DNA of 64,000 nt from Alphaproteobacteria bacterium (GTDB lineage Bacteria; Pseudomonadota; Alphaproteobacteria; MPNO01; UBA830): NCBI GenBank assembly GCA_964291215.2, contig OZ219791.1:1-64000 (forward strand), given 5' to 3'. The position numbers were made by a program, and so were the translations under genes. This document shows positions 1 through 51,264 of this stretch, in pieces; position 1 is the stretch's first letter, and every line of letters starts with the position of its first letter. Under the pieces are notes generated by a model. The model did not search any database and was not told the origin of the DNA. It worked only from the letters and a program-made list of their open reading frames with translations.

Positions 1-856
1 ATCTTCTCGCGCCGTAGCCGAGATGTACATCAAGGGTGTTTCCACGCGGCAAGCCGAAGATGTAATGCGCGAGTTCGGGAGCCTGTCCTCTTCTCAGGTC
101 AGCCGGGCCACTAGGTTGCTCGATGAAGAACTCGCCGCCTGGCGCAACCGGCCCCTTGGGCTGATGAAATACCTGATCCTGGATGCGCGCTATGAAAAAG
201 CCCGCCATGACGGCGTTGTGCGCGATGTCGCAGTGCTCTCGGCCATCGGAATAGGGGCTGCAGGCACGTTCTGGGGCTCTCTGTGGCGCTCTCCGAGGTC
301 GAGGTCCATTGGAGAGCCTTCCTGGAAAGCTTGCTAGCCCTGCATGGTACGACCTTCATCGTCTCGGATGACCATGCTGGGCTGAAAGCGGCACGACGCG
401 CGGTGCTGGGCGCGGCGACATGGCAGCGCTGCCAGTTCCACTTGGCACAAAACGCCGTGCACCGAACAACGACATCAGGAAACGTATTGGAAAACAGCTC
501 GGAGCCATGCGTCCTCACTCCAAACCGCCGAGGCTGAACTGGGCGCCCTCGTGGCCAGCTATCGCGACAAGCATCCAGACTTCGCAGACTGGCTGGAAAA
601 CAATGCGGGGCTCGCTGTCTTCACCTTGCCCGATGCTCACCACAAGCGTATGCGAACCTCGAACGGCATCGAGCGGCCGATCCAGCAAGAGCTCAAGCGG
701 CGCACCTCCAAAGTCAGGGTCTTTCCAAACCTCGCCTCGTTGGAGCGCCTCTCAACCGCGGTCCTCATCGACGAAAAATGGGAAACCGAAACCAAGATCA
801 AATGGGAACAGCTCGATCAGCTTCACGACAATTTCCAGACATCAGGTTGCGTAATC
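1..856 (+). mobile_element. IS256-family element, 3' part, frameshifted transposase (copy 1)
   Basis: Fragments MYIKGVSTR..., YLILDARYEK and RMRTSNGIER...ELKRRT..VRVFPN are IS256/Mutator motifs. Right IR ends ...gacatcaggttgcgtaatc at 856. Near-identical copy at 48407-49649. Confidence 0.9.
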
Positions 857-1313
857 GTTCTGAAGGGTCGGGGCGGAGAACGACAAGCTTCGTTCGAACA
901 GGTCGTACGGGCGCAAGAGCGAGAAGAGGCAGCGGGCGCCATCGAGGCGCGGCCAGCAGTGCGGCACTCCTGGCCGCGGCCGGCGCTCGAGGAGGTGGAG
1001 GAGCGGCTGGAGGTGGCGGAGGACGCCTGCTCGTGCTGCGTTGCCAACGGTTCGCACCAGGATCATCGAGATCAAAAGCGGCGGATTGTCCGCCGGGGCT
1101 GTGACTACCCCGGTTCACCGAGCGAGGTGGCGGCTGTTTCCCGGCACCGCATTCGGGTGTGGACGCATGTGCTGCACGAGCGCGTGCATGCGGCCCTTGC
1201 GCCGCGTCGCGGCTGACCGACCAAGGGCTTTCGCCGGGGGGACGCCGGCCAGCTCCACGAGCCGGATGCTGCCCCTGTTCGAGCCGCTTCGGGACGCGAT
1301 CCTCGCGCACCGG
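857..1313 (+). pseudogene. Internal fragment of IS66 transposase (TnpC-like)
   Basis: Near-identical to 11632-12073 of the IS66 at 11132-16495; begins exactly at the IS256 right end. Confidence 0.8.
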
Positions 1314-1525
1314 AACGAGGCGGCCCTGGCTCTCAGCAAGGTCGCCGAGACCGTCATCAGCAGCGGGGCGGAGCTCGACGACCTTCTCGACGGCAACGCC
1401 GCCGACATTGTCCGCTAGCGCAGACGGCGGGGACGACCTCATGAACAAGGAGTTAACTGTGTCCGGTTGAAAGGCCCCGGCCTGTTCGGACGCCGACGGG
1501 GCCGACGCGCCGGTCGCGCGGAGCT

Positions 1526-2368
1526 TTAATCCGCCGGAGCGAGCGCGACCATGCCCATCCCCGTTGTCATTGGGGCATAGTAGTTGCGGTGCGCCCGGCT
1601 AACTCTGTTCGGCAGTGCGCCGCGCATAACCAGCCACATGATGAGTTCAACGGCCTCCGCTCCGGCCTGTTCCATGATGTCCAAGTGGGTCAGCGCGACC
1701 AGCCGATCCGGATCGGTCTCGATCCGGTCGAGGAAATCGTTGTCGAATTCCGGGTTGAGATGCCCGAACCGCGCTCCGTTGAGCTGGTGCGACATGCCGC
1801 CGGTGCCGAGAATCACCACCCGGGCGTCTTCGGGGTAGGCGGCAACCGCGCGGCCAATCGCCTCGCCGAGCTTCCAGCATCGCCGCGCGGTCGGCAGGGG
1901 ATGCTGAATGACATTGACCGCGATCGGGACCGTCTTCACCGACCAGCAGTCGGCATGGTCGAAGCAGAGATGCATGGGAACCATGAAGCCGTGCTCGACC
2001 GAGAGTTCCTGGCAAACCGAAATGTCGAACTCGTCATAGACAAGGGATTCGCACAGGTGCCACGAAAAGTCCGCGTCACCCGGAAAGTCCGGCAGCGGCC
2101 GGCGGCCCCAGCCTTCGTCACCGACCGGGTAGAGCCCGGCCGCGCCAACCGCAAATGTCGGGTACTTGTCGAAGAAGAACTCCGCGCCGTGGTCGTTATA
2201 GACCACGATCGCGATGTCGGGCTTCACCACGTCGCGCAGCCACGCCTTGACCGGCTCGTAGGCGTCGAACAGCGGCTTCCAGGCCGGTTCCTGGGTGCGG
2301 CCCTGGTCGTAGGCGACACCGATCGAGGGGACATGCGAGGTCCCGATCCCGGCAACGATCTTTGCCAT
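1526..2368 (-). CDS. ligB: Class III extradiol dioxygenase beta subunit (protocatechuate 4,5-dioxygenase LigB-like)
   Basis: MAKIVAGIGTSHVPSIG, YNDH, GTGGMSHQL, GAEAVELIMW motifs; directly downstream of a LigA-like gene. Confidence 0.88.
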   Translation of the reverse strand: MAKIVAGIGTSHVPSIGVAYDQGRTQEPAWKPLFDAYEPVKAWLRDVVKPDIAIVVYNDHGAEFFFDKYPTFAVGAAGLYPVGDEGWGRRPLPDFPGDADFSWHLCESLVYDEFDISVCQELSVEHGFMVPMHLCFDHADCWSVKTVPIAVNVIQHPLPTARRCWKLGEAIGRAVAAYPEDARVVILGTGGMSHQLNGARFGHLNPEFDNDFLDRIETDPDRLVALTHLDIMEQAGAEAVELIMWLVMRGALPNRVSRAHRNYYAPMTTGMGMVALAPAD

Positions 2369-2369
2369 T

Positions 2370-5665: not shown

Positions 5666-5678
5666 GCGCAAGGGCGGC

Positions 5679-7796: not shown

Positions 7797-8012
7797 GGGC
7801 CGGAACCCGTCGCGTCGCGCCGGAGCGCGGGAAGATTCAGGCTCGCCCCCGCCATAGCTCTTGTCAATGGCAAAACGATCGCAGCCCGGCAACTTGGTGC
7901 GCCCGAATCCAGTCCTCCCGGGCCCGCCGGGAGGGCGCTCTGCGCCGGACCAGTCATCGGGTGCCGGTTCCGAACCGCCCCTCCCGGACAATGTCGTAGT
8001 CATAAGATTCAG

Positions 8013-9506
8013 GTAACTGCTCACCCCCTGGTTCCGGCTTGATGTCGGGGTAGAGTAACGAACGGGTTTTCGTGGAGATTTGACACTGCAGGCTGATTCG
8101 TTTAGTGGTGGTAATCGAGAACGACGGGGACCGCCAGTGGGCTACTTTGGATCGAAGGCGACGAGTGGGCTGTGCCAGCTGCTTCCGGGGCTCCGCATGA
8201 TCTGTATGTGGAAACGCATCTCGGAGGCGGCGCGCTGATGAAGCGCAAGGCCGGGTGATGGCGACGGGCGGCGCGCGAGGAGTTCGAAGCGGCCAAGATC
8301 GCGGCGCTGCCGGCAAGGTGGCGGAAGAGGCCGTGATCCGCGTCCTCGTCATCCTGCTCGACATCATCATCGTCGTCCTTCTGGAGAAGACCACGCACGA
8401 GCCGGAACTCCGGTCTGCCGCCGTCACAGACGGACGAGAGCGTGCCGGGAGCAACGGCCCGAAGCCGAACCGGCAGATGGGCGACAACCTGCGCAAGATC
8501 ATCGTCGAGGAGACGGTCGCGGCCTGCGACGCCTGCGGCACCGACATCGACGGCCCCGTCGATCGGGAGCGCCGCACGACATCGTGTTCGAGGTCGTCGA
8601 GCGCCGCGCCGAGATCAAGGAATGCCCGAAGTGCAAGGCCCGGGGCCGGTTCCCCGACAACATCCCGTGCAGTACGGCATCCAGGCCCTCGTCATCAACC
8701 TGCTGGTTGCCCAGATGCTGTCCCTGCGCCGTGCTGTCGCGCTCGTGCAGGCGATCTCCGGCATCAAGCTCTCCGAGGCAACCTGCCTCGGCTATGCTTT
8801 CACGATGCGTCATGGGAGGAGGCTGCCGTGGCGCACCTCCTGCAACGCCCGATGTCGACGATTTCGGATCAACAGTAAGTGGCTTCATGTCGTGGGACCC
8901 TGACGTGCAAGTTCCCGCACCGCAAGCGCGGGCAAGAGATCGGCCCGTGCTACAAGGGCGTCCTGGGCCTCGTACATGGGCCAGTGTAGCCACCAGTTGT
9001 GCGGCAGCCACCTGCTGCGCGAACTGACCTTTGTCGTCGAGGCTACCGCGCGACTGATGAAGAGCCTGCTCCGCGAGGTCTGCCACAAGATCAACAAGAG
9101 CGCATCCAAAACCCTGAACGACGCCGGGCGCAAGCGCTACCGCACCATCAGGGCGCCAGGGAACTGCCCGACATCCCGCCGAAAGGAAAACGTGGACGCA
9201 TAGCAAACGCGCACAACCTGCACGAACGTCTCGTGAAACACGAAAACCTGCGCTTCATAGACAACCCCGACGTCAGCTTCACCAACAATGCCGGAGAACA
9301 GAAGATCAGGATGGCAAAGGTCAAGGTGCCCGGATGCTTCCGCTCCACGCAAAAGCATGGTGCCGGGGCTCAAGCTACCTCACCTCCATGGCCGCACTCG
9401 GCTACAATCATCACGTCGCAACCCAGATCGCCCTCGACGGAAAAGCCGCAGACATCATCAACGAGCACTACGACCAATCAGAACCCAACTAGGGGTGAGT
9501 AGATAC
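8013..9506 (+). mobile_element. IS66-family element (single-ORF, ISBst12-like), degraded, with 8-bp TSD (copy 1)
   Basis: Ends gtaactgctcacccc / ggggtgagtagatac; direct repeat AGATTCAG at 8005-8012 and 9507-9514; HQLCGSHLLREL and FTNNAGEQKIRMAKVK motifs. Confidence 0.92.
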
Positions 9507-9595
9507 AGATTCAGCCGCCTGACTGGCCGAACTGTCGGCGCCCGCCCTGCTCCTCCACGCCATCTTCACGTCTCTGCAGAACCGGGCAAATGGCG

Positions 9596-9895
9596 AAGCT
9601 AGGTGGTTCTGCCGTGCCCGAACGCGCGAGCCGAGCTGCGCCCGGGTAGTTCGCGGCAAGCGAACCCGTTCGCATTCGCCAAGCGAGATCACGATCTTTC
9701 CGAAGTGCCGGTCTGAACCCATCGCGTGATAGGCTGACCGCGCATCCTCGAAGCCGAAGACCCTGTCGATCACCGGCCGCATGCGGCTGGCGCCGATAGC
9801 CGCGTTCATGTCGCGGAACATCTCCCGGCTTCCGACATAGACGCCTGAAAGGCGGATCGACTTGCGAAGCAGGAGAACCATGTTCACCTCTCCTA
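9596..9895 (-). pseudogene. C-terminal remnant of a zinc-type/MDR alcohol dehydrogenase
   Basis: GVYVGSREMFRDMNAAI...RPVIDRVFGFEDARSAY...HFGKIVI; 5' part cut off by the IS630 and IS66 insertions. Left boundary approximate. Confidence 0.8.
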
Positions 9896-11124
9896 GTAGT
9901 CCACCGGCATTGTATTGATGGTTTTTTTGTGGGTAGTATTCCTGTGTCGGCATCCGTTGGAATCCGGACAGTGTCGATATCCACACGGGCAAGATGCCGA
10001 ACAGGCAGGCAGCCGCAGCCCCATGTGCAGGTCCGGACAACGGGAGCGGCGCAATGACAGGAGCAACGTATATGGCCAACTCTCGGGGCAGGAAGCTCTA
10101 CCGGGTGACCCTTTCAGCGCAGGAGCGCTGGGATCTGAAGGCGATTGTCGACGGCACCGGGGCTGCCTGGCGCCGGGCACAAATCCTGATGCTGAGGGGG
10201 CGCTCGGCTTGTCGATGCCGACATTGCGCTGGGCACGGCGACGGTCGAGCGTTTGCGCAAGCGCTGCGTCCTGGAGGGGCTGGACGCCGCCCTCAGCCGC
10301 AAGGAGCAGGTGAACCGTCGGCCGAAACGGCTGGACGGGGCGATGGAAGCGAAGCTGGTCGCCCTGTTCGTCCCCGCCCGAGGGCTGTGGACGCTGAAGC
10401 TGCTCGCCGGCCGTCTGGTGGAAATCGTCGAGCGCATTTCGGAAGAAACGGTCAGGAAGACGCTAAAAAAGAGATCAAGCCGTGGCTGAAGCAGTACTGG
10501 TGCATTCCACCACACCGGAGCGCACAGTTCGTGGCGGCGGATGTGCTTGACACTTATCAGCGGGACTTTGCCGGGGACGAGGTGCTGAGACCAGCCGGCA
10601 GCAGACGAAGGAAACCCCCCGTCCTCCGGTCAGCCGGAGGTGGTCGACTATGAATATGAGCGCAACGGCACGGCCAACCTCTTCATGGCCTTTGCGCCCA
10701 ACGAGAACTGGCGCACGGTGAAAGTCACCGACCGCCACGGGACTGGGCGCACTTCATCCGGGAGCTTGCCGACGACCATTTCCCCGACAGGAAGATCGTG
10801 CTGGACAATCTGAACACGCACAGTCCCGCATCACTATATGAAGCCTTCGAGCCCGAGGAGGCGGGTACGAAAGCGGTTCGAGTTTCGCTACACGCCGAAG
10901 CACGGAAGCTGGCTCAACATGGCCGAAATCGAGATCGGTGCGCTGTCGCGGCAATGCCTTCGGCGACGCATTCCCGACCGTGACACCATGCGGCGGGAGA
11001 CGGCAGCATGGGTGGAACGGCGCAATGCGGCCGATGTCACTGTCGACTGGCGTTTCACGACGAAGGATGCCCGGACGAAACTGAAGTCGCTATATCCATC
11101 AATACAATAATGTCAGGATACTAG
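9893..11124 (+). mobile_element. IS630-family element, frameshifted transposase
   Basis: CTAG at both ends with imperfect IRs sharing attgtattgatgg; WTLKLLA, DNLNTH, YTPKHGSWLNMAEIE motifs; A6G slippage site at 10465-10471. Confidence 0.9.
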
Positions 11125-11236
11125 CCCGAAGGTAAGCGTTCGTTCATGCGGTGATGACGATCTGCGCCGAGGTTTGTTTTGGTGATTCGGAGAAGGGGGC
11201 TGGTGAATTTTTTGGCGGTGCCATCAGGTCGTGCAT

Positions 11237-12750
11237 GGTCATGTGCATCGAGGATTTCGTGTCATCATCGGGTGCGGACGCCGCTGGCGACGTGCCGCAG
11301 TCGTCGTGTCGTGATTCGGCCACCTGGAAGTCCCTGTACGATCGCAAGCGTATTCGAGCCGAGGCGGCGGAGGGGCGCTGTGAGGAGCTGCGCTTGCAGG
11401 AGGTGGAGGGGCCGCGCGAATTCCCTGAAGGCGATTTTCGAGAGCAATCGCGAGAAGCTGTCAGCTGCCCGTGCGGAGGTCAGGGAAATTCGGCGGACGG
11501 CGAAGCAGTCTCTTGCGCTGAAGCAGGAGGTTGCATGTCCGGGCCAGCTTCTTGCCGAGGCCGGCGCGCGGAAGCGGTCGACGGTGGTATCGCTGCGCAT
11601 GGAGAATGCCAGCCTGAAGCCCGCGATGAAGGTTCTGAAGGATCGGGGCGGAGAACGACAAGCTTGGTTCGAACAGGTCGTACGGGCGCAAGAGCGAGAA
11701 GAGGCAGCGGGCGTCATCGAAGCGCGGCCAGCAGCGCGGCACTCCTGGCCGCGGCCGGCGCTCGAGGAGGTGGAGGGCGGCTGGAGGTGGCGGAGAACGC
11801 CTGCTCGTGCTGCGTTGCCAACGGTTCGCACTAGGACCATCGAGATCAGGGCGCACAAGCGGCGGATTGTCCGTCCGCGCCGGGGCTGTGACTGCCCCGG
11901 TTCACCGAGCGAGGTGGCGGCCGGCACCGCATTCGGGTGTGGATGCATGTGCTGCACGAGCACGTGCATGCGGCCCTTGCGCCGCGTCCAGGGGCTTTCG
12001 CCGGGAACGCTGGCCAGCGAGCCGGATGCTGCCCCTGTTCGAGCCGCTTCGGGACGCGATCCCCGCGCACCGGGGTCTGCGCCATGCCGATGCATCCGGG
12101 CCCTGAGGGAGGTCCGGAAGTCGCGCCTGGCTCCGGACATCGGTCAGCCGTGACGCGGTTTTCTTCTACCCCTCGCGCAGCGCCGAGGTCGCGGCGAAGC
12201 TGTTTGCGGACGCCCCCATGTCTGCGACCGCTACGGTGCCTGCAAGAAGCTGGCGCGCCTGTGGCCCTTCATCATCCTGTGCTGTTGCCGGGCGCATTGT
12301 CGACGCGACTTTCCGGACTGCGCCGGCCGCAGCTGGAGGGGTGGGCGGACGAACGGGTCGATCGCGGAGATCTGCCGCCTGAACACGGCTCGACTGCCTT
12401 GCTTCCGGCGACGTTCGAGACCGCGCAGGCGGCGCTGGAGACTGCGGTCGCCGCGCTGTTTGCGGAAGCGCCGAGGCTTCCGAAAGCGGCGCCGGAAGGC
12501 AGGCCGCTGCGCTCAACCATCGCGTGTTCGTCGACCATGGACAACAATTTCGGGGAAAGGGCTGTCAGGGGCCCGGGCGGAAGCCCGGCTTCGGTTCCGA
12601 CAGCATGGACGGCTGTCATGTACACGGCACGGTCGCGAGGGGCGGCCTCGACATTCTGCGCTGGCGCCTGCGCGGAGAACGGCGGCCCGGCGATCTGTCG
12701 CCCTGGTTGCCGTGAGCCCGGAGAGGCGGCGGAGATTCGCAGCGCCGCCG
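11237..12750 (+). pseudogene. IS66 TnpC-like transposase, many frameshifts
   Basis: Coiled-coil N-terminus, Cys zinc-finger remnant, DNN.GERAVRG motif; boundaries approximate. Confidence 0.75.
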
Positions 12751-13127
12751 TGAGGTCGAGGGCGCGACTTCATGGTCGCGCAGTGCTGCGACGATCACGG
12801 AGCGGATCCCATCGCCCGCGCCTTCTGCCGCCGCCAGCCCCGCCGGCCCCGAAGCTGATCACGTCGGACACCGCCGCCCCTAAGACCCTTGACGAGCTAT
12901 TGCGGTAGGGAACCGGGTTCCCCGGTCCCCCCGCACAGATCCGGACGTGCGCTGTTCGCATCCGGCTCCTCCCTCAGGTCTGACGACAAGACGCTGATCT
13001 GTCGTATGCGCTCGGCCGCCTGTGACCCGCTTTCCCGCTTCTGAGCGCGGCGCGGGCCAACCGCATTGCCCTTCCCTCCAGCAACTCAGCAGGCTCCGAA
13101 GAACCCTTGTTCGCCGCCTTCGACGGT

Positions 13128-14815: not shown

Positions 14816-14821
14816 ACCATG

Positions 14822-18426: not shown

Positions 18427-18499
18427 GTAAGCGTTCGTTCATGCGGTGAGGTGTTGTTGTTTTCGTCCGTTTGACGGGCTTTTGTCAGGGAGTTCCAGC
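18427..18499 (-). mobile_element. Isolated right end of another IS66 copy, inverted, truncated by IS30
   Basis: Near-perfect reverse complement of 16423-16495. Confidence 0.85.
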
Positions 18500-31500: not shown

Positions 31501-31523
31501 GGGTGTTCTCCTGAAGGGGCGGT

Positions 31524-32809: not shown

Positions 32810-32897
32810 TTGCACCGGCGGGTTCGCTGCGGTCCTGCGGGCGCGGCGGCTTGGAATCAGGGACGGGAGGATTAGATCATGACGCGGATGCCGGGCG

Positions 32898-37071: not shown

Positions 37072-38596
37072 GTAACTGCTCACCCCCTGGTTCCGGCTTG
37101 ATGTCGGGGTAGAGTAACGAACGGGTTTACGTGGAGATTTGACATTGCAGGCCGATTCGCTTAGTGGTGGTCATTGAGAACGACGAGGACCGCCAGTGGG
37201 CTACTTTGGATCGAAGGCGACGAGCGGGCTGTGCCAGCTGCTTCCGGGGCTCCAGCCCCCGCATGATCTGTATGTGGAAACGCATCTCGGAGGCGGCGCG
37301 CTGATGAAGCGCAAGGCCGGGTGATGGCGACGGGCGGCGCGCGAGGAGTTCGAAGCGGCCAAGACCGCGGCGCTGCCGGCAAGGTGGCGGAAGAGGCCGT
37401 GATCCGCGTCCTCGTCATCCTGCTCGATATCCTCATCGTCGTCCTTCTGGAGAAGACTACGCACGAGCCGGAACTCCGGTCTGCCGCCGTCACAGACGGA
37501 CAAGGACGAGAGCGTGCCGGGAGCAACGGCCCGAAGCCGAACCGGCAGATGGGCGACAACCTGCGCAAGACTATCGTCGAGGAGACGGTCGCGGCCTGCG
37601 ACGCCTGCGGCGCTGACATCGACGGCCCCGTCGATCGGGAGCGCCGCACGACATCGTGTTCGAGGTCGCGCCGCGTCGACGCCGAGATCAAGGAATGCCC
37701 GAAGTGCAAGGCCCGGGGCCGGTTCCCCGACAACATCCCGTGCAGTACGGCATCGGCATTCAGGCCCTCGTCATCAACCTGCTGGTCGCCCAAATGCTGT
37801 CCCTGCGCCGTGCCGTTGCGTTCGTGCAGGCGATCTCCGGCATCAAGCTCTCCGAGGCCTCGGCTATGCTTTCACGATGCGTCATGGGAGGAGGCCGCCG
37901 TGGCGCACCTCCTGCAACGCCCGATGTCGATGATTTCGGATCAATAGCAAGTGGCTCCATGTCGTGGGACCCTGACGTGCAAGTTCCCACACCGCAAGCG
38001 CGGCCGGGAGGCAAGAGATCGGCATCATCCCGTGCTACAAGGGCGTCCTGGGCCTCGTACATGGGCCAGTGTAGCCACCAGTTGTGCGGCAGCCACCTGC
38101 TGCGCGAACTGACCTTTGTCGTCGAGGCTACCGCTGGGCGCGACTGATGAAGAGCCTGCTCCGCGAGGTCTGCCACAAGATCAACAAGAGCGCATCCAAG
38201 ACCCTGAACGACGCCGGGCGCAAGCGCTACCGCACCATCAGGGCGCCAGGGAACTGCCCGACATCCCGACGAAAGGAAAACGTGGACGCAAGTCCGACGC
38301 GCACAACCTGCACGAACGTCTCGTGAAACACGAAAACCTGCGCTTCACAGACGACCCCGACGTCAGCTTCACCAACAATGCCGGAGAACAGAAAATCAGG
38401 ATGGCAAAGGTCAAGGTGTCCGGATGCTTCCGCTCCACGCAAAAGCATGGTGCCGGGGCTCAAGCTACCTCACCTCCATGGCCGCACTCGGCTACAACCC
38501 ACTCGTCGCCACCCAGATCGCCCTCGACGGAAAAGCCGCAGACATCATCAACGAGCACTACGACCAATCAGAACCCAACTAGGGGTGAGTAGATAC
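37072..38596 (+). mobile_element. IS66-family element (ISBst12-like), degraded, copy 2, no TSD
   Basis: Near-identical to 8013-9506 with the same ends; flanks ggatattg / ctcggcga do not match. Confidence 0.92.
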
Positions 38597-39116
38597 CTCG
38601 GCGAACGAGAAGCAGGAATGTCCGATCGGAACCGCCTCGGGAGGGGACAGGGGAAGCGTGTACATGGGCCACCTAGAGCAAGAAAGCAGGGTTGCGTACC
38701 TTACTCGATAGCAGATTCACTTGTCAAGCCCGCCAAACCCTGAAAACCCTTGGTTTCCCTGTGGAAAAGGGCTCCATCAGACCAAAGACGGCTTTCCGAA
38801 GTCAGGACGTCTGAGACTGGCGGGTACCGGGATCGCAACCCGAGCCCGGACACCAGATCATGTGGCGCAACCCGCCTGACCAGCGCCGTTCTTGGCCATC
38901 AAGTCGGCTTCCGAGCCGGACAGCGGCAGGCCTTGCAACACATTCAGACCCGCGACGTCACGTCGTAATTGTCATTACTCGGCAGGGCTAGCTCCGCCAA
39001 ATCCTGATCCTGGCTGAATATCACGGCCACATCGAGAATGCACAACACCAAACCCACCTCTACGGAGGGTTGAGCAGATACGGACATTGTTCACCTGACC
39101 TTGAGGAGAGATCGTC

Positions 39117-41327
39117 ATGGCAACCCATTACATCGACAGCGAAGAGACGGTGGATCGATCCCGGGATACCGGAGAAAACCGATACGAGGCCAGGCGCGGG
39201 GAGGGCGGAAGTCCCTACGAAGGCCCGATGAACGTTGTCGGAGGGGCAGGCAAGGACACCTTCATCGGACAGAAGGGCAATGACTGGTTCAAGGATTCCG
39301 GCGGCGGCAGCGACGCACACGGCGGTGGCGGGCGCGACTATCTCGAAGGCGGCAACGGACCGAACACCCTGCGCGGCGGCTGGGGCAACGACATCCTGGT
39401 CGGGAACCAGAAGGACCAGATCGCCGACCGCCTCTACGGCGGCTCCCACAACGACTTCCTGATCGCGGGCAAGCTCAAGGCGAGCAACCGGCAGGACGAC
39501 GGCACCGGCGCGCTGACCGACGCGACGCTTGGCCGGGGGCCGATCTCCAACCAGGCCGGGGATCCGCAGGGAAGCCTCCTCCATGGCGGCCATGGCGGCG
39601 ACCACTTCATCCTCAACCCCGACAGCTATGTCTATATCGAGGACTTCCGGAATTGGTACGACTACATCTACGTGACCGGTATCCGGGACGGGGCGGAGCT
39701 CACCATTGTCCACCACCCCGACGGCCATTACGGGAATGCCCACTTCCGGATCATGCTCGGCAACAAGGTGCTCGCCGAGCTCAAGTTCGAGGAGGATGTC
39801 AATCCCGATGACGCCGAAGCCGTGAGGGTGGCGAAAGGGAAGATTGACGAGTTCCTGGAGACCGCGAGCGGGGACTGGATCAACGGCGACCACAATGGCA
39901 ACACCATTCAGGGCACCGCGCATTCCGACCATATCTACGGCCATGGCGGCGAAGACACGCTCAAGGGCGGCGCGGGGGACGACGCTCTCGTCGGCGGCAA
40001 CGGCAACGATACCCTCCGCGGCGGGGACGGCGACGACCGGCTGCAAGGCGGCAACGGCAACGACACGCTTTGGGGCGGCGCGGGCATGGACTCGCTGGAC
40101 GGCGACGGCGGCAACGACCTGCTCTACGGCGGCGGCGGCGACGACGGGCTCTACGGCGGCGACGGCCACGACCGGCTCGACGGCGGCGACGGCAGGGATG
40201 TGCTCTATGGCAACGCCGGCCGGGACATCTTCGTGATCAGCGAGGGCCGGAGCAGCGACGGGGCCGCTGACATCATCGGGGACTTCAAGGTCGAGGAGGA
40301 CTACATCCGGTTGCCGTTCAGCATCTCGTGGGACGATGTCCGGTTTGTCCGGAGCATCACGGACCCGAACGATGTGACCACGCACCTTGTCACCGGCACG
40401 GGCGATTCGCAGAAGGTGCTGGCCCGGTTCCAGGGCTTCGAGAATCTCACTGCCCAGCAGCTGCAGGAGCTCAAGAACAAGGTCGACTTCATCTGGGACT
40501 TCGACCCGAACGAGGAGTATCCGGACCCGCAGGCCGGGAAGACGCTCAAGGGCACGAACAGGAAGGACATGCTCGTCGGCGGGAACAACGACGACACCAT
40601 TGACGGCAAGGGCGCGGCGGACGTGCTCTACGGGCGCGGCGGCGGCGACAGGCTCTTCGGCGGCAATGGCAAGGACACGCTGTATGGCGACAGCGGCGAC
40701 GACTCCCTGTTCGGGGATGACAACAACGACATCCTCCACGGCGGCGCCGGCGGCGACACGCTGAACGGCGGGAAGAGCGCCGACCGGCTGTACGGCGAAG
40801 ACGGCGATGACACGCTCAATGGCGGCAATGGCGACGACATGCTGTATGGCGGCGCCGGCAGCGACGAGCTGGACGGCGGGGACGGCAATGACCGGCTGGA
40901 AGGCGGCGAGGGCGATCTCGATGTGCTGGCCGGCGGCGCGGGCGAAGACCGGCTGTTCGGCAACGGCGGCAACGACCGTCTGGAGGGCGGCAGGGATGCC
41001 GACCGTCTGCGTGGCGGCGAGGGCGCCGACGAGTTCCTGTTCCGCCAGGGCGACGGCGTCGATGTCATCACCGACTCCGAGGACGGGACCGACGCCATTA
41101 TCTTCCTGGCCCAGACCGGGGCGAATGCCGGGACCGACACGAAGTTCCTTTCGTTCTCCGACCTGGTGCTGACCGACAGCGAGGAGGCGGGCGGCGTGGT
41201 CATCACCTCGGACAAGCTCGAAGGCAACGAGATCATCGTCAGGGGCGTGACGTCCGAGATGCTGACGGCCGACGACTTCGGCTTCCTGACGGTCGATCAG
41301 TACAACGAACACCTCGACATCGGCTGA
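39117..41327 (+). CDS. RTX/hemolysin-type calcium-binding protein
   Basis: Many GGxGxDxLx nonapeptides in three blocks; GAGGAG RBS; no N-terminal signal peptide; T1SS-type C-terminus. Confidence 0.92.
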   Translation: MATHYIDSEETVDRSRDTGENRYEARRGEGGSPYEGPMNVVGGAGKDTFIGQKGNDWFKDSGGGSDAHGGGGRDYLEGGNGPNTLRGGWGNDILVGNQKDQIADRLYGGSHNDFLIAGKLKASNRQDDGTGALTDATLGRGPISNQAGDPQGSLLHGGHGGDHFILNPDSYVYIEDFRNWYDYIYVTGIRDGAELTIVHHPDGHYGNAHFRIMLGNKVLAELKFEEDVNPDDAEAVRVAKGKIDEFLETASGDWINGDHNGNTIQGTAHSDHIYGHGGEDTLKGGAGDDALVGGNGNDTLRGGDGDDRLQGGNGNDTLWGGAGMDSLDGDGGNDLLYGGGGDDGLYGGDGHDRLDGGDGRDVLYGNAGRDIFVISEGRSSDGAADIIGDFKVEEDYIRLPFSISWDDVRFVRSITDPNDVTTHLVTGTGDSQKVLARFQGFENLTAQQLQELKNKVDFIWDFDPNEEYPDPQAGKTLKGTNRKDMLVGGNNDDTIDGKGAADVLYGRGGGDRLFGGNGKDTLYGDSGDDSLFGDDNNDILHGGAGGDTLNGGKSADRLYGEDGDDTLNGGNGDDMLYGGAGSDELDGGDGNDRLEGGEGDLDVLAGGAGEDRLFGNGGNDRLEGGRDADRLRGGEGADEFLFRQGDGVDVITDSEDGTDAIIFLAQTGANAGTDTKFLSFSDLVLTDSEEAGGVVITSDKLEGNEIIVRGVTSEMLTADDFGFLTVDQYNEHLDIG

Positions 41328-41351
41328 GCCGCTTCTGGCCAGCGGTAAGAC

Positions 41352-41382: not shown

Positions 41383-41774
41383 ACTGCGATTACCGCAATC
41401 AGGGCGGGGGGCAGCCGGCGCCAACCGGTTTGCCGGCAGACCGCAAGCCCGGTGGACGGGCCACTAGGGCGATGCGGGAGCGGGCGGTTTCGTGAGGGCC
41501 ATGTCCCTGTCGCGGGAACAGTCTCTGTTGCGTCTGTTTGCACGGGGCGTGCCGCAGCCGGGTAGCCGGCGCGGGCGGTGACACGCGGCGGTGCGGGGGG
41601 CGACTTTCATCATCATGCACACCGGACGCCGCACCTGCGGTGCTAACGATCTGACATGATTGTGGATTTCCCCGTTTCCGGTGCAACCGGGGGCGTTGGA
41701 GCGAACCCAGCTTTGCACACCGTGCAACTGATCGGGGGACCGCAGTCATGGCAGCCATTCGCCTCACCCAGCAC

Positions 41775-42250
41775 CGGGTCGACAGCCGCCAGCCGATTCG
41801 GTAGTCCCGCGCGCCCGTGATCCCGAACCCGACGTTCGGCGTCTCGGTGAAGCGGTCGCCGAACAGCGCCATGCCGTAGCGGAGCTCACTCGCCAGCCGG
41901 CTCTCCGGCTCGAACGTCCCGCCGTCGGGGGCAAGCCCCCGCGCATCCCGCGCCTACCACAGCCGGTCGACACCGCTCCCCCGGCGCGCCGTATGTGGGC
42001 GCCAGGCTGAACGAGAGGCCGCGACCGCGCTCCCCGGGCGCCAGACGCACCGCGCCCCATTCGCGGTAGTTCGAGTCCTCGTGGGCAATGAGCGCGCGGA
42101 CGCTGGCCTCCATGCTGAGCCCCGTCTCCGGGTCCGCGTACGACAATCGCCCGCCGAGCTCGACGCCCGTGCCGGTCTCGGCATCGCCGCCGTCATGGCG
42201 CAACCCGAGCTCCAGGCCCGGCGTGAAGACGCCGCCATCGCCCATCCTCC
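41775..42250 (-). pseudogene. Autotransporter beta-barrel C-terminal remnant
   Basis: FTPGLELGLRHDGGDAETGTGVELGG..., GLSFSLAPTYG, GFGITGARDYRIGWRL; frameshifted. Confidence 0.8.
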
Positions 42251-42537
42251 AGGCGCCGCGAGGCGCCGTATGCCGATTCGGATGCAGACTGGCACGAAGC
42301 GGCGCGGATGCGCGCGCGGACCGGCGGGATCGATGTCCGGCGGTACCAGCCAGCATGCATGCCGCGCGAAATTTTTTTCATCATGCCACAGGGGGCGCAT
42401 GCGGGGCCTGCCGTGTCCTGGAGGGGACAGGCTGTTGATTCCGCACAGGAAATCCCCTTGCTGCACCGTTTGACAATGCCATTTCGCAGGGACAAATCTG
42501 CTCCCGGAGACGCGGTTATGCGGGGGAGCGGCAGGCA

Positions 42538-42747
42538 TGGAGACAGGCAGCGACGACGGCGCGCGCGGGGACCTTCGCCGCGCCGCCGCCAACGACAATC
42601 CCGCCCCGGACAGTGGGCCGGAAGCCCGGATCGAGGCCGCAGCGCTACGCCTCGCCCGCTTGCTGGGCCGGCAGATCGCGCGCGCGCTTCGAGGCGGGCC
42701 GCGCCGCCAACGACAACGCGCTGGCGGACGAGGCCGGCGACGGATAG
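42538..42747 (+). pseudogene. Small hypothetical protein (AANDN repeats), frameshifted
   Basis: RRAAANDN...RLARLLGRQIAR, with a second AANDN in another frame. Confidence 0.4.
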
Positions 42748-42783
42748 GTGACCCGGACCCCCGCGCGCGGCGTCCTGGGCCCG

Positions 42784-43293
42784 CTACAGCCCGAGCCGTT
42801 CGAACGTCCGAAGCGGCAGGTACAGGCGCAGCGGCCGCAACGGGAACGGCACGAAGCCGTACCGCTCGTAGAAGGCGCTGGCGCGGTCGTGCAGCGCATC
42901 GACCACGACGGCATAGACGCCGATGGTGTCGCCCGCGCGGACGACCCGATGGATCGCATCGAGCAGCAGGGTCTCGCCGAGCCCGCTTTCCTGACTGCGA
43001 AGATCGACGGCCAGCCGCCCGATGACGGCCGCCGGCACGGGATAGTGCGGCAGCCGCCGGGCGAGGTCCGCCGGCAGGTTGTCCTTCTCGAAGCTCGCCG
43101 CGCTCAGCGTGTAGTAGCCGGCGATCCGTTCCGACGGGTCGCCCGGTGCGACTAACACCCGCGCGACGCGCCGCCGGGCGTCCTGGGAAGCTTGCCGGCG
43201 GATGTAGCGGTCGAGCGACGGCTCCCCGCAGGAGAAGGTCGCGCGGTCGTGATGCGGGCCGAGCGGCTCGACCGTCAGCGGCGCTTCATCCAC
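42784..43293 (-). CDS. GNAT acetyltransferase toxin (TacT/AtaT-like)
   Basis: HDRATFSCGEPSLDRY, GYYTLSA, IGRLAVD, VVDALHDRASAFYERYGF. Confidence 0.92.
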   Translation of the reverse strand: MDEAPLTVEPLGPHHDRATFSCGEPSLDRYIRRQASQDARRRVARVLVAPGDPSERIAGYYTLSAASFEKDNLPADLARRLPHYPVPAAVIGRLAVDLRSQESGLGETLLLDAIHRVVRAGDTIGVYAVVVDALHDRASAFYERYGFVPFPLRPLRLYLPLRTFERLGL

Positions 43294-43570
43294 CGATGCG
43301 CTCGCGGTAACGGCGCGCGGCGCGGCGCAGCGCCGCGTTCGGCGCGGGCGGGTTGAGCAGCGCGTCGTGGAAGGCGTCCCAGTCCGTCGCCAGGAGGACG
43401 ATCCGCTCGCGCGCCTCGATCACCCGCTCGGCCTCGGCTACGGCGCTGTGCAGCACGAAACGGCTGACCGTGGTTTCCTCGTAGGCCGCCGCGCGTTCGA
43501 GCTTGCGCTTGCTCCTGGCGTCGAGGCGCAGGTGGACCCGCTCGTGCTTCGTCTCGGCTGTTTCGGCCAT
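43286..43570 (-). CDS. DUF1778 RHH antitoxin (TacA/AtaR-like)
   Basis: KHERVHLRL...KLERAA...SRFVL..A..EAERVI...FHDALLNPPAPNAALRRA; overlaps the toxin start. Confidence 0.92.
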   Translation of the reverse strand: MAETAETKHERVHLRLDARSKRKLERAAAYEETTVSRFVLHSAVAEAERVIEARERIVLLATDWDAFHDALLNPPAPNAALRRAARRYRERIGG

Positions 43571-43669
43571 TACGATGTCTCCCGCGTGAGTTGACGATAG
43601 ACATATGCACCAAATTGGCGTACATTGCAACCGTGTCGGCGGAGGACGCCGGCGAGAGACAGGAGAATC

Positions 43670-45408
43670 GAGACCCTTCGCTGTGCGCTTTACGCCCGCT
43701 ATTCGTCCGACCAGCAGCGGCCGGCCTCCATCGAGGACCAGTTCCGGGTCTGCCGCGAGCACGCGGAGCGCGAGGGCTGGAAGATCGTCGGCACGTACAG
43801 GGACTCCGCCATCTCGGGAGACAGCGTGATCCTCCGGCCCGGCGTCCAGGCGCTTCTGGAGGACGCGCGGCGGGGCGCGTTCGAGATCGTCGTCGCCCTC
43901 GACCGGATCAGCCGCGACCAGGCCGATGTTGCGACCCTCTACAAGCATCTGCGCTTCGCCGGCGTGACGATCTTCACGCTCGCGGCGGGCGAAGGCGAGA
44001 TCAACGAGCTTCACGTCGGCCTCAAGGGGACCATGAACGCGCTCTTCCTGAAGGACCTCGCGGCGAAGACGCACCGGGGGCTCCGGGGCCGCGTCGAGGC
44101 CGGCAAGTCGGGCGGCGGCATCTGCTACGGCTACGACGTGGTGAAGCTGCACGACGAGGCCGGCGAGCGCATCCGGGGCGAGCGGGAGATCAACGAGGCC
44201 GAGGCGGAGATCGTCCGGCGCATCTTCCGCGAGTTCGCCGCCGGCACCAGCCCGCGCGCCATCGCGCGGCGCCTCAACGACGAGGGCATCCCCGGCGCCA
44301 AGGGCAGGCTCTGGAGCGACTCCGTCCTGCGCGGCCACGCCAGGCGCGGCACCGGGCTGCTCAACAACGAGCTCTATATCGGCCGGCTGGTGTGGAACCG
44401 CCAGCGCTTCCTGAAGAACCCGGACACCGGCAAGCGGGTCGCGCGCGTCAACCCGCCCGAGGAATGGATAATCGCCGAGGTTCCGGAGCTCCGCATTGTC
44501 GACGACGCGCTGTGGCAGGACGCCAAGGCCCGGCAGGGAGAGCTTGCCGAGAAATACGCCATCGCGGCGACGCGGAACGCCCACGCCAACCGCATGAACG
44601 CCGCCCACCGGCCGCGTTACCTGCTCTCCGGGCTGCTCGAATGCGGCGTCTGCGGCGGCCCCTATTCCATGCGCGGACAGGGCCGCTACGGCTGCTCTAA
44701 CCACGTCATGACGGGCTCGTGCGCCAACAGCCGGACCATCCGGCGCGTCGAGATCGAGGAGCGGGTGCTGGCGGGGCTGAAGGACAAGCTGATGGAGCCC
44801 GAGGCCGCCGCCGAAGCGATGAAAGCGTATGCCGAGGAGACCAACCGGCTCAACCGCGAGCGTCGGGCGCGAGCGACCGCGCGGAGCTGGCCGGGATCGA
44901 GAAGAAGATCGCGTCGATGCTCGACGCCATTGAGGAGGGTGGCTACGTGCGGGGTATGTCCGACCGGCTCCGCGAGCTGGAGGCCCGCCAGGACGAGATC
45001 AACGAACGGCTGTCAGCCGCTCCGGTCGACATCCCGGACGTTCACCCCAACATTGCCGGCGTCTACCGCCGCAAGGTGGAGCGGCTCGCGGAGGCGCTGG
45101 CCGATCCCCGCGACCAGGCGGCGGAAGCCATAAGGGGGCTGATTGAGCGGATCGTGCTGACCCCCGGCGCGAAGCGTGGCGAGTTGCACGCCGCGCTCCA
45201 TGGCGACCTCGGCACCATCCTCGAATGGGCCGGGAGCGGCAGGGCGAAGGGAGCGACCGACATCCTGCGAGGCGGAATGTCGGTCTCGGTGGTAGCGGGG
45301 GCACGCAACGGCCGACAGCAGGAGGGCCTTTCCAAGCCGCGGCATGATGGTTTGACGAAGGAGCTGGCCATCCGTTTCTCTGAGTTGGGTCAGACGATAA
45401 CCCGCTAG
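43670..45408 (+). pseudogene. Large serine recombinase, frameshift near 44870
   Basis: ALYARYSS, DRISRD, recombinase domain (GILNNELY-like), LLSGLLECGVCGG zinc ribbon, IRGLIERIVLTP. Start uncertain. Confidence 0.88.
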
Positions 45409-45540: not shown

Positions 45541-45551
45541 GATGGAGTGAC

Positions 45552-47249: not shown

Positions 47250-48372
47250 CTAGTGTTATGTCAGCAATGATATGTCGTACATTTGGTGCTAGACTGTCCG
47301 TCCATTCGGGATGGAGGTCGGAGTATGAAACGCTACGTGGTGACCCTGGACGAACGGGCAGAACTTTCGGAGATCAAGGGCTCGCACCTGTCGCAAAAGG
47401 TAATCAACGCCCTGCTTAACTGCGACGAGGGCGCGTTCAATGAATGCCAGATGACCGGGAAGGTCATTGCTGGGATTCTGCGCATCAGCATGCGCAAAGT
47501 AGACCGAGTAAAGAAGCGTTTCGAGGGGCTGGAGGCGGCATTGGGTGGCCGGCGCCGTCCTACCTATATGCGAAAAGCCGACGGCGTCTTCGAGGCGCGT
47601 GGCCCTGAGTTGTGGTGAACCGCCTGAGGGTTACGCGCAATGGTCGTTGCGGCTGCTGGCCGACCGCGTTGTCGAGCTTGGTTACATTGATACCGTGTCA
47701 CACGAGACGGTGCGGCGTGTTCTAAAAAAAACTGCCTCAAGCCATGGCAGCGGGTGGGTGATTCCTCCTCAAGGGAACGCCGACTTCGCCGCAGCGAAGG
47801 TGCTCGATGTCTATCGCCGCCCCGCCGCCTTCCCCGTGGTCTGCATGGACGAAACGCCCCGACCGGCGAGACACGGCAACCGATCGCCATGGCGCCGGGA
47901 CGGGCGTAACGACTACGAGTATCGACGTTGCGGTACCTGCAACGTCTTCACGGAACCCCTGGCCGGCAAGCGCATGACCAAGGTAACCGAGCGCAAGATC
48001 GATTGGGCGCAGTTCCTGGCCGACATCGCCGGGCGCTACCAGGACGCCACCACCATCACCCTGGTGATGGACAACCTCAACACTCCCCGGCGCCTTCTAT
48101 GAGGCCTACCCGCCGGACGAGGCCTTGTGGGACCGCTTCGAGTTCGTCTACACTCCCAAGCACGGCAGTTGGCTGAACGTGGTCGAACTCAACGTCATGA
48201 TCCGCCTGAACCGCCGCATCGACTGCATCGAGGTGCTACGCCGGGAAGTTGCCGCCTGGCAGGCCTCCCGCGACCGCATCCAGGCCAAGGTGGATTGGCA
48301 GTTCACCACCGACGATGCCCGCGTGAAACTCAAACGCCTTTATCCGACATTTGACGAATGACAAGACACTAG
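47250..48372 (+). mobile_element. IS630-family element (second type), degraded
   Basis: CTAG at both ends with IRs; WSLRLLAD, CMDET, MDNLNT, YTPKHGSWLN. Confidence 0.9.
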
Positions 48373-48406
48373 GCCGAGTTTGCGTGCGTTGTCTGGCCCC
48401 CAGTCG

Positions 48407-49649
48407 GGTACTGTAACTTGATGTCTGGAAATTTGTCTGAGGTTTGCGCTTTGAGGCGTTTCACTGGGGGGGGCTAGCCCCCCAGTGAAACGCGGCGCCA
48501 TCGTGCTATCCCATGGAGTTGGAAAAATTCATGGAGGAAGCGAATGGACCTGCGACACACTACGACGATCGGGACTGTTTTGGAACATCTGATCGCAAAC
48601 GGAGCAACGGATCCGGGGCGGGTCTTTGGCCAGCTCTTCGAGCTTGCGATGCAAATCGAGCGCGAGCAGCACTTGAAAGCGGGCCACCGGACACCGGAGC
48701 GACAGGGCTATGCCAACGGCTACAAGCGGATCGACACCCCCACTGTTACCGTTCAGGTGCCAAAGACGGCCGGTCACGGGGACGATCCGTCCCCAGTCGC
48801 TTGAACGCGGCCAGCGATCTTCTCGCGCCGTGGCTGTAGCCGAGATGTACATCAAGGGTGTTTCCACACGGCAGGATGTAATGCGCGAGTTCGGGAGCCT
48901 GTCCTCTTCTCAGGTCAGCCGGGCCACCAGGTTGCTCGATGAAGAACTCGCCGCGCAACCGGCCCCTGATGAAATACCTGATCCTGGATGCGCGCTACGA
49001 AAAAGCCCGCCATGACGGCGTTGTGCGCGATGTCGCAGTGCTCTCGGCCATTGGAATAGGGGCTGCAGGCACGTTCTGGGGCTCTCTGTGGCGCTCTCCG
49101 AGGCCGAGGTCCATTGGAGAGCCTTCCTGGAAAGCTTGCTAGCCCTGCATGGTACGACCTTCATCGTCTCGGATGCCGGGCTGAAAGCGGCACGGTGCTG
49201 GGCGCGGCGACATGGCAGCGCTGCCAATTCCACCTGGCGCAAAACGCCGTGCACCGAACAACGACATCAGGAAACGTATTGGAAAACAGCTCGGAGCCAT
49301 GCGTCCTCACTCCAAACCGCCGAGGCTGAACTGGGCGCCCTCGTGGCCAGCGACAAGCATCCAGGCTTCCTGGCTGGAAAACAATGCGGGGCTCGCTGTC
49401 TTCACCTTGCCCGATGCTCACCACAAGCGTATGCGAACCTCGAACGGCATCGAGCGACCGATCCAGCAAGAGCTCAAGCGGCGCACCTCCAAAGTCAGGG
49501 TCTTTCCAAACCTCGCCTCGTTGGAGCGCCTCTCAACCGCAGTCCTCATCGACGAAAAATGGGAAACCGAAACCAAGGCATACATCAAATGGGAACAGCT
49601 CGATGACTGAGAGCTTCACGACAATTTCCAGACATCAGGTTGCGTAATC
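48407..49649 (+). mobile_element. IS256-family element, degraded (copy 2)
   Basis: IRL ggtactgtaacttgatgtctggaaatt / IRR aatttccagacatcaggttgcgtaatc; GYANGYK..., matches 1-856; no TSD. Confidence 0.9.
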
Positions 49650-49902
49650 GGCCTTGTGGGATCGATTCGAATTCGTCTACACCCCCAAGCACGGCAGTTG
49701 GCTGAACGTGGTGGAACTCAACGTCATGATCCGCCAGTACCTGAACCGCCGCATCGACCGAGGTGCTACGCCGGGAGGTCGCAGCCTAGCAGGCCTCCCG
49801 CGACCGCATTCAGGCCAAGGTGGATTGGCAGTTCACCACCGACGATGCCCGCGTGAAACTCAAACGCCTTTATCCGATATTTGACGAATGACAAGACACT
49901 AG
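49650..49902 (+). mobile_element. 3' fragment of IS630 (duplicate of 48121-48372)
   Basis: Near-identical sequence ending gacaagacactag. Confidence 0.88.
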
Positions 49903-49936
49903 GGTAGCGAAACAGGAAACCCGGGAGCATTCAGCC

Positions 49937-51264
49937 ATGAATCACCTTGGTGCGCTTGCGGCTCATGCCGCCGAATCTGTCCCTTCAGAGGAGGTGCGCG
50001 CGAAAGCCGCGTTGGTGCTGGCCGATACGCTTGCGCCGATCGTGGGCGGGTCGGTGGAAGCCGAGGTGCAGGCGCTGACGGGACGACTTTGCACGGACGC
50101 GACAGGCGAGGTCTTGATCATAGGGCCGGGGCGGCGCACAGATCCAAAGACGGCAGCGCTTTTGAATGGCACCGCAGGCACAGCGCTGGAGATGGATGAA
50201 GGACACCAGTTCTGCAAGGGACACCCGGCGATCTATGTTATCCAGGCGGTTCTGGCTGCCGCCCAGTACCAACACCCGTCCCGCCAGGCGATCCTGACCG
50301 CAATTGCCGTTGGTTATGAAGCGGCGGCATGGGTCGGCATCGCCACCCAACTGCGTCCTTCGATGCATGGCACATGGGGGCCATCGGCGCGGTGGCGGCT
50401 GTTCTTCGGTTGCAGGGCGCATCACAGGCCGAGATCCGGGATGGCATGAACATGGCGGCAAGCCTTGGGCTGTCGACTTCGCGCCGGACAATGCTGGAGG
50501 GCGGTACGGTCAGAAACCTCTTCGCGGGCGTGTCGAACCAGATGGGTCTACTGGTTGCCGATCTCGTGGCGACCGGGTTTTCAGGCGACACCGAGGGTGT
50601 TGCTCATGTATTTGGACAGGTCGTGTCGGACCGGTTCGATCCAAGCGCGCTGACGGACGACCTGGGTCATCGCTGGGAGATCATGCGCAATTACTTCAAG
50701 CTGCATGCCTGTTGCAGGTTCAATCATGCCGCTCTTGATGCGCTGGACTTGCTGCTTGCGGACGCGCCGGACTTCGTGCCGGAAGACATCGCCGAGATCA
50801 TCGTCGAGACCTATGGGCTTGCCGTCGAATTGGACGATGCCGCACCAAGGAACGTTCTGGCCGCCAAGTTCTCGGTATCCTTCGCGATGGCGGCTCGGTT
50901 GATCACGGGGGTCAGCACGGTCGAGAGTTTCTCGGCAGAGCGCGTGAGAGACGAGGTGATCCAGGCATTGGCCAGTCGCGTGCGGCTGGTCGAGGATCCC
51001 GCGATGACCGCCAAACTTCCCAACCAACGACCTGCGCAGGTGACGGGCGCCTTGCGCGACGGGCGCCGCTTCACCGCATCGACCGAGACAAACCGGGGGG
51101 ACTGGGCCGACCCGTTCACAAAGACCGAGGTGCACGGCAAGTATATGTCTCTCACCGCCCGAGTCCGGTCACGCGAGAAATCGCAGGAGGTTTGGGACGC
51201 AGCACTGGAACTGGACAGCGGAGATGGTGCGGCTTTTCTCGACCTTCTTGCCCGGCCAGACTGA
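49937..51264 (+). pseudogene. MmgE/PrpD-family protein, frameshift near 50370
   Basis: AALLNGTAG..LEMDEGH...GHP, KLHACCRFNH, AKFSV motifs split over two frames. Confidence 0.85.

Follow-up and report, generated by a model that had tools for sequence, protein, structure and literature searches.

Short deletions of one narrow size class riddle the repeated DNA of the alphaproteobacterial genome G000, considered here from a 64-kb window (the whole stretch analyzed, the first 64 kb of contig C2) that carries eroded copies of several insertion sequence (IS) families and a group II intron. Most of the load on IS copies is the same few hundred deletions, common to many copies. On balance we lean toward the reading that rare 5–7 bp deletions arise once and are then copied one way between repeat copies by short-patch loop repair, which would be a deletion drive and not a high mutation rate. 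The genome (6.15 Mb, two contigs, 64% GC) encodes an AddA of alphaproteobacterial type that scores above cut-off, and repeats with at least three copies occupy about 1.83 Mb (30%) of it. Among its relatives, G001 is about 93% identical in DNA, and G002, G003, and G004 are 69–79% identical; UvrC identity is 96% in G001 and 74–80% in the other relatives.

Repeat clustering gave 143 seeds, and 24 large families were compared genome-wide with their own majority sequences; 547 of the 903 distinct clean indels recovered in this way are 5–7 bp long. In a second reference set of 22 families (F9 and F18 omitted), retained segments were restored, with only those of 4–14 bp added back, which favors that range. 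Against these references, sites with lengths of 4, 5, 6, 7, 8, and 9 bp number 24, 174, 388, 250, 43, and 29, and a second bump at 11–13 bp fits adjacent double events. The size peak is not made by the restoration, because the majority-sequence count shows it without that step. Just eight of 365 apparent “insertions” of 4–9 bp are tandem duplications, so these are taken as retained ancestral sequence. The load per IS copy comes to 13.8 deletions per kb, versus 20.7 substitutions per kb. Private substitutions in the IS families lean toward A+T (G>A 730 and C>T 707, versus T>C 246 and A>G 194).

A sequence-only reading of the window had described pervasive microhomology-flanked deletions of 5–9 bp. 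The narrow range and the deletions themselves are real, but site counts place the range at 5–7 bp. All six of its DNA examples were found where it had put them: GGAC-aa-GGAC at 37498 versus GGAC at 8432 (6 bp, microhomology 4), GC-aacct-GC near 8780 (7 bp, microhomology 2), a doubled CGGCAT near 37755, ATG-acc-ATG at 368, GC-tatc-GC near 560, and CT-tggg-CT near 157. It had also noted that duplicated elements differ mostly by short deletions and not by 1-bp slips, as is the case: among the 25 gaps in three copy pairs within the window, 21 are 5–7 bp and two are 1 bp. In unique DNA, 1-bp gaps remain the largest single class (86, versus 71 of 5–7 bp). Three of its four protein examples (IS1634, radC, and prpD) stand, while that in the reverse transcriptase (RT) was not confirmed, the sole paralog showing no gap there; and prpD, which it took to be an open gene, is split by a frameshift near 50380.

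Microhomology at the deletions is modestly in excess, about twice chance in this genome, but is not the rule. Among 598 non-redundant sites it is absent at 33% (null 51%), reaches at least 2 bp at 41% (null 20%), and reaches at least 3 bp at 23% (null 7%); the mean is 1.5 bp versus 0.8 expected, and 59% of sites have 0–1 bp. In G002, where 400 kb selected around IS66 matches was sampled, microhomology is at chance level (mean 0.69 versus 0.84 expected, 0–1 bp at 85% of 115 sites, and none at half). Repeat indels of 5, 6, and 7 bp there account for 44, 68, and 8 of 155 junctions. Degenerate copies lack 25–29 segments and an intact copy lacks none; eight near-identical intact IS66 copies are clean. 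The trait is thus patchy in the genus, being present in G000 and G002 and not seen in G001, the sister of G000. No 5–7 bp repeat indels were found in G003, G004, or G001, in aligned repeat pairs of only 3.9, 15.1, and 1.6 kb, respectively, too little to count as absence, and the IS256 DNA of the window has no match in five relatives. Among the IS66 copies of G004, otherwise near-identical, L014 differs from L011 and L012 by 60 bp of extra palindromic sequence.

The deletions are shared among copies to a degree that single-nucleotide polymorphisms (SNPs) are not. In families of at least 15 copies, 20 deletions versus 2427 SNPs are private to one copy, while 265 deletions versus 943 SNPs occur in at least four. 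The odds ratio for this private/shared contrast is 34, the copies not being independent, and a looser count with 58 private deletion sites leaves the contrast unchanged. The private deletion/SNP ratio, 0.008, agrees with that of unique non-coding DNA (34 deletions and 9496 substitutions, the latter on both branches). Only one size class is mostly shared: shared versus private counts are 287 and 23 for 5–7 bp, 22 and 36 for 1 bp, and 9 and 12 for lengths of at least 15 bp. The top decile of carrier fraction holds 76 of 358 deletion sites, and a second length occurs at just 15 of 345 common sites. Across 22 families, higher copy number goes with denser deletions (rho 0.54), which is partly a detection effect. 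Coincidence of sites between families could be scored for one diverged pair only (none seen, 1.1 expected).

Deletions are also only loosely coupled to the SNPs around them. At 1–12 bp, r2 is 0.20 for deletion–SNP pairs versus 0.48 for SNP–SNP pairs, and beyond 25 bp it is about 0.1 versus 0.2–0.27. Carriage is lowered only where a differing SNP lies within about 11 bp, whereas SNP controls are linked further out, and flank diversity is the same in carriers and non-carriers beyond about 12 bp (a drop at 1–3 bp may be partly an alignment effect). The IS copies do recombine and are mosaic, with four-gamete failures at 24–42% for SNP and deletion pairs, but neighboring variants do not move as tracts, deletions being decoupled from SNPs beyond about 11 bp. 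At 95% of 85 diagnostic SNPs, a subfamily of F2 (seven copies, 7–9% diverged) holds to an allele of its own, and yet 27 of the 39 deletions that are common among the main group are present in it, 17 of them still segregating. Identical deletions cross subfamilies 8–13% apart without the flanking SNPs. In G002, copy L194 has 7–9 of its 22 deletions in common with copies 12% away, and these are absent from L189, which is 4% from those copies; the shorter identical flank there is 6 bp at 12 shared versus 2 bp at 48 unshared comparisons, which are not independent.

The elements of the window on which these deletions were read are as follows.

1–857, + strand: IS256-family remnant (F1, about 80 near-full copies), with ten 5–7 bp gaps versus 48407–49649 and Transposase_mut at 23–337.
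857–1313, + strand: F12 fragment, with 5–7 bp gaps versus the copy at 11632–12073; IS66-type by its ends, with no library match.
8013–9506, + strand: F0 copy, an internally deleted IS66-derived element (163 near-full copies, 17.9 deletions/kb), with a perfect 8-bp target duplication (8005–8012 and 9507–9514); the site is empty in X18.
9893–11124, + strand: F3 (DDE_3, IS630-like, 56 copies), lacking 13 segments of 5–7 bp and keeping 16 that others have lost.
11132–12898, no strand assigned: F12/F17 with IS66-type ends, eroded, resuming at 15997–16495 past the intron.
13007–14825, − strand: group II intron RT/maturase segment (GIIM), lacking 31 segments (25 of 5–8 bp) and with 45 substitutions versus its only paralog, C1:96884-94843.
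15783–15960, − strand: group II intron RNA domain RF02005, in F25 (22 copies).
16622–18397, + strand: DDE_Tnp_1 transposase element (F10, earlier called IS1634), open, with 6-bp target duplications; it lacks 6 bp at 17950 versus 12 of 27 genome homologs and keeps 23 segments that others have lost.
18499–19669, no strand assigned: F5 (46 copies, 3-bp target duplications), 14 deletions/kb.
25395–25410, − strand: in-frame 6-bp deletion in radC, in a low-copy integrative region, at 25401 versus one of two paralogs.
37072–38596, + strand: second F0 copy.
47250–49902, + strand: F8 (DDE_3, IS630-like), split by an F1 IS256 copy at 48407–49649; both are eroded.
49937–51264, + strand: single-copy mmgE/prpD with the frameshift near 50380 and one 6-bp deletion at 50369 without microhomology, read versus a 76%-identical G001 homolog; the gene is broken, not riddled.

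F0 is a non-autonomous family whose left part matches the young, intact, 12-copy family F9 and the IS66 copies of G004; judging by a motif, this part may be a fragment of an adenine methyltransferase passenger. The integrative region at 24619–33400 (radC and a DUF2201 pair) has 3–5 copies, with 1–2 such deletions per kb. An RTX calcium-binding repeat protein (39082–41339) is present in four copies at 98–99% identity with no 5–7 bp deletions, which suggests selection or recent copying. The three tandem RIT-type tyrosine recombinases at 21098–24575 have open frames and no other copy at 85% identity or above. A 1317-aa fibronectin-III autotransporter (32898–36851) contains an internal repeat of about 360 bp and has about 10 related copies in the genome, and the serine recombinase/TacA block at 41706–45303 has two copies at 0.6% divergence.

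Read evidence consists of read-derived contigs from runs X16, X17, and X18 of one study, X16 being possibly the source sample. Both alleles of several 5–7 bp indels are seen in contigs of all three. Those of X17 carry the same eroded form of the intron RT segment, covering 13149–13555 and 13755–14183 without a gap, and X18 differs from the window at 53 positions in 6.7 kb, with the site of the eroded IS66 element empty there. The same assembly also has young families that are clean (F9, at 0.18 deletions/kb). The contigs of X18 in the intron region (window 13341–15341) reach a summed depth of up to about 51,000, versus about 55 for the genome, and keep segments that the window has lost; there seems to be a large intact intron expansion in the X18 sample, in this strain or another organism.

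In unique DNA, an alignment with G001 of 705 kb (from 1.07 Mb out of about 5 Mb) gives 71 segments of 5–7 bp missing from G000 versus three from G001, while gaps of 1–4 bp number 112 versus 85. Losses of exactly 6 bp make up 30 of 36 in called genes versus 17 of 34 in non-coding DNA (p 0.005), and selection has therefore filtered the deletions in coding DNA. Microhomology of at least 3 bp is found in 31 of 70 unique-DNA events. The non-coding total, 34 events in 97 kb (0.35/kb), leaves IS copies with about 40 times that density. Five single-copy genes split by IS have one event in 6.6 kb, and 21 frameshift calls, some of them doubtful, have four in 31 kb. The sequence-only reading had spoken of unselected DNA in general; a concentration in mobile DNA is clear, but that scope was too wide, since broken single-copy genes are not riddled.

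The deleted segments have a preference at one end. Of 204 events that lack microhomology, 72% have a pyrimidine as the second base removed (expected 50%). With a slash for the segment edge, segments start at C or G/G or A, then T or C, then C (S/R-Y-C) in G000 and at /A, T, C in G002, and the other end has little signal. When tested on held-out events from the two genomes, an oriented model does better than a symmetric one (186 versus 156 and 108 versus 96); a palindromic staggered-cut motif, tried as a candidate, lost to the one-sided model in cross-validation, and mini-hairpins were rejected because the deleted segments show no clear self-complementarity. Events of G002 score positively with the G000 matrix, while the G002 matrix scores G000 events badly (−199). 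Scores increase with carrier fraction, from −0.05 for private deletions through 0.42 and 0.60 to 0.84, with −0.08 for unique-DNA events and −0.53 for random positions. There is no strand bias relative to coding (107 versus 121) or replichore (0.626 versus 0.629). A deletion is found at just 173 of 1407 motif starts; with so few starts used, and nearly always one length per common site, a single origin followed by copying with a sequence preference fits better than repeated cutting. Eight overlapping pairs of unequal length have one edge in common, in five cases visibly at S/R-Y.

Under the favored reading, two copies would pair, and a segment present in one and absent from the other would bulge out as a loop. 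MutS would handle mismatches and loops of up to about 4 nt, so that SNPs and 1–4 bp indels would not travel; larger loops would be left to another nuclease, which would remove the looped strand in a patch barely longer than the loop. UvrABC excises a 12–13 nt patch and might, as a guess, be that nuclease, in which case the loop would be capped near 7 nt. The first copy of each deletion would be of mixed origin, slippage supplying the microhomology-rich part. Eroded elements may keep moving in trans, multiplying donors; those of F0 are still mobile, with perfect 8-bp target duplications in 80 of 121 and the one site empty in X18. The same bias between strains would explain the 71:3 ratio in unique DNA, with selection keeping mainly in-frame 6-bp events. 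As far as can be read from sequence, a lower size edge between 4 and 5 bp in a genome with mutS and mutL open is consistent with MutS-independent loop repair. The available text of two sources describes mismatch repair (MMR) as efficient on loops of up to about 4 nt and less so on those of 5–8 nt, and a separate large-loop repair pathway in E. coli (PMC2504288; PMC8235422).

A survey of the repair gene complement, as the sequence-only reading had proposed, finds the standard set intact. Open G000 frames match 37 of the 41 E. coli proteins of repair and replication that were searched, including RecA, MutS, MutL, UvrA/C/D, PolA, RecJ, XseA, RecFOR (the recO match being weak, E 8e-5), RuvABC, RecG, DnaQ, and both RNases H; UvrB and AddA are also intact. 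Among the E. coli queries, RecX, Ung, SbcD, and RecC have no match in G000, and SbcC has one weak match. Searches for Ku in G000 and 12 family members, for the ATP-dependent ligase PF01068 in five genus genomes, for NucS and TopIB in G000, for Argonaute/Piwi in 21 genomes, and for EndoV, S1-P1, RecT, ERF, and Prim-Pol in five genomes each were all negative. EndoVII is not in G000, with two sub-threshold matches in G002 and G004, and GIY-YIG occurs in G000 only as UvrC. Other candidates tried and rejected include mismatch-triggered cutting of the NucS type (no NucS in G000, and no SNP excess in deleted segments, at 23.4 versus about 21 per kb), topoisomerase IB religation (no TopIB), and IS21 as a source (istB is found more often in G001, where the pattern is lacking). 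Reading-frame length as a test of polarity is uninformative, as antisense frames are long at 64% GC.

Several observations weigh against copying by loop repair. The RT segment at 13007–14825 is riddled (31 gaps) though low-copy and needs a lost family; a lost or external donor pool is plausible, the intron family being, or having been, multi-copy. This segment is among seven of the 76 listed pairs from two- or three-copy elements in which one partner alone is riddled, at 7–12 per kb, with no deleted donor in the genome, and all of these would need lost families. Private deletions keep a small 6-bp peak (14 of 92), so the supply may also be raised. Sharing over 4–8 identical bases is equally expected of a local hot-spot, and the motif was trained on the same sites that were scored. 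The one-way bias is inferred from the frequency spectrum, which a few newly arrived intact copies could mimic. The control of broken single-copy genes is small (the five genes in 6.6 kb and the 21 frameshift calls), with ages undated. No enzyme for loop removal is found among the genes searched, and the named repair genes are in all five genus members searched, so that they leave the lack of the pattern in G001 unexplained. Finally, loops of 5–8 nt are still repaired by MMR, if less efficiently, in the available text of PMC2504288, and the lower edge need not be sharp.

It is possible, though we would not bet on it, that the deletions are instead made by a dedicated system in which a homology-dependent nuclease stamps 5–7 bp deletions between repeats, with species-specific size and motif. 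This would be a bacterial counterpart of repeat-induced point mutation (RIP) in fungi, where damage falls in repeated DNA, rises with copy number, and inactivates transposons, and it would shut off the expansion of transposons and introns. An apparent dependence on repeats is seen in density (IS copies versus non-coding DNA and IS-split genes) and in the correlation with copy number, in part a detection effect, but riddled elements also occur among those with two copies. In RIP, new C-to-T changes are made by a dedicated methyltransferase-like enzyme, whereas in G000 existing small deletions appear to be copied, and an enzyme or benefit is a proposal only.

Recurrent and independent cutting of the same sites in each copy, confined to mobile DNA, by an element-encoded or guide-directed nuclease, the ends rejoining minus 5–7 bp, seems to us unlikely. 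It would explain the weak linkage, the motif and its rise with frequency, the short identity, the riddled low-copy elements, and the eight shared-edge pairs; but 88% of motif starts show no deletion, a single length is seen at 96% of common sites, and none of Piwi, NucS, Ku, ATP-dependent ligase, or TopIB turned up in the searches above. Target duplications are unreadable for most families, and those that can be read, of 8 bp (IS66 and F22), 3 bp (F5), and 6 bp with a TA core (F10), are unlike the deleted segments.

A genome-wide deletion mutator working by slippage or microhomology end-joining under purifying selection, close to the explanation first offered for this DNA, is less likely again. 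The process is real, narrow, and restricted by lineage, as that explanation had it, and the 71:3 ratio in unique DNA, the preponderance of in-frame events within genes, the microhomology of at least 3 bp in unique-DNA events and IS sites, and the lack of a match to E. coli SbcD all suit it. Slippage or end-joining as the main engine is nonetheless unsupported, with a third of G000 and half of G002 sites lacking microhomology, no excess of it in G002, Ku and ATP-dependent ligase not found in the genomes searched, and recFOR and mutSL intact. A plain mutator also predicts many private deletions and riddled single-copy pseudogenes, and neither is seen: private deletions are rare, IS-split genes have their single event, and IS density is far above that of non-coding DNA. 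It may supply raw deletions, leaving the sharing unexplained.

We consider it improbable that deletions are made during transposition or retrohoming, in non-autonomous masters, and then spread by unbiased recombination. Eroded F0 does move, and SNPs fail the four-gamete test at 24–38%, but unbiased recombination should carry deletions together with SNPs, and it does not. The same spectrum is moreover found in IS256, IS66, IS630-like elements, and the group II intron, which differ in copying chemistry, and in unique DNA.

Another candidate process, in which a short RNA primer is lost where Okazaki fragments join, suggested by the purine–pyrimidine start of the deleted segments, is very improbable, despite the one-sided start motif, variable length, and success of the oriented model in both genomes. 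There is no lagging-strand bias (7 G-rich versus 3 C-rich in unique DNA and 7 versus 9 among private deletions, at low power), no Prim-Pol family was found in the five genomes, and sharing is again unexplained; in the available text of PMC2978363, gammaproteobacterial DnaG primers start pppAG.

An assembly or polishing artefact in repeats, the alternative raised by the sequence-only reading, can for practical purposes be set aside: the reads enter only as contigs and X16 may be the source sample, but both alleles occur in X16, X17, and X18, X17 spans eroded stretches without a gap, coding DNA keeps frame, and young families in the same assembly are clean.

As to the organism, a marine bacterium, 69–92% of sampled G000 words are present in three runs of one study and 21–24% in sponge metagenomes, and one sponge run examined contains a relative about 95% identical to G000 in unique DNA; a sponge-associated lifestyle is likely. 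Most of C1 and the first 600 kb of C2 have negative GC skew, the remainder of C2 has positive skew, and C1 carries dnaA, an arrangement that would suit two contigs belonging to one chromosome. The 6.15-Mb genome has a single 16S rRNA gene, with an IS256 copy about 500 bp away.

Among known systems, “Ca. Sodalis pierantonius” has, in the part of the source available, an IS-rich host-associated genome with a strong deletion bias and an in-frame excess in selected genes (PMC4948707), and deletion bias with in-frame filtering is likewise found in G000. Its deletions are described there as 2–100 bp long, as lying at repeats that are direct, gapped, or imperfect (quasi-repeats), and as linked to the absence of recFOR and sbcCD. 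In G000, by contrast, they are 5–7 bp (5–6 bp in G002), often without microhomology (quasi-repeats being unscored), with recFOR intact and the load shared among copies. In Wolbachia wBm, dead IS copies are reported to exchange sequence and share inactivating changes, with homogenization (Cordaux 2009, as relayed in the available text of PMC3196728 and PMC3205602), while in G000 one deletion size class spreads and flanking SNPs stay, across 8–13% divergence. Large loop repair is similar in that loops beyond the range of MutS go to another pathway, which removes the loop; it differs in that the loops reported are up to hundreds of nt, on laboratory substrates, and that the accessible portions of those papers (PMC2504288; PMC8235422) report no 6–7 nt upper cut-off, end motif, or genome-scale effect on IS. 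The combination of size, sharing, and decoupling from SNPs was not described in the literature searched, mostly outside subscription papers and with supplements excluded, and would be filed as biased ectopic gene conversion of a new variety.

Deletion bias in bacteria is usually ascribed to mutation plus drift. If the drive is true, one deletion size class spreads through 30% of a genome with intact repair, and does so in two species about 70–76% alike. Shared indels would then be unusable for dating or grouping IS copies, and the question of what becomes of loops missed by MutS would be testable through a defined size and motif. A nuclease able to take out loops of 5–7 nt given roughly 6 bp of flank would be a useful tool, and for the organism itself the drive would be a new route for killing IS bursts.

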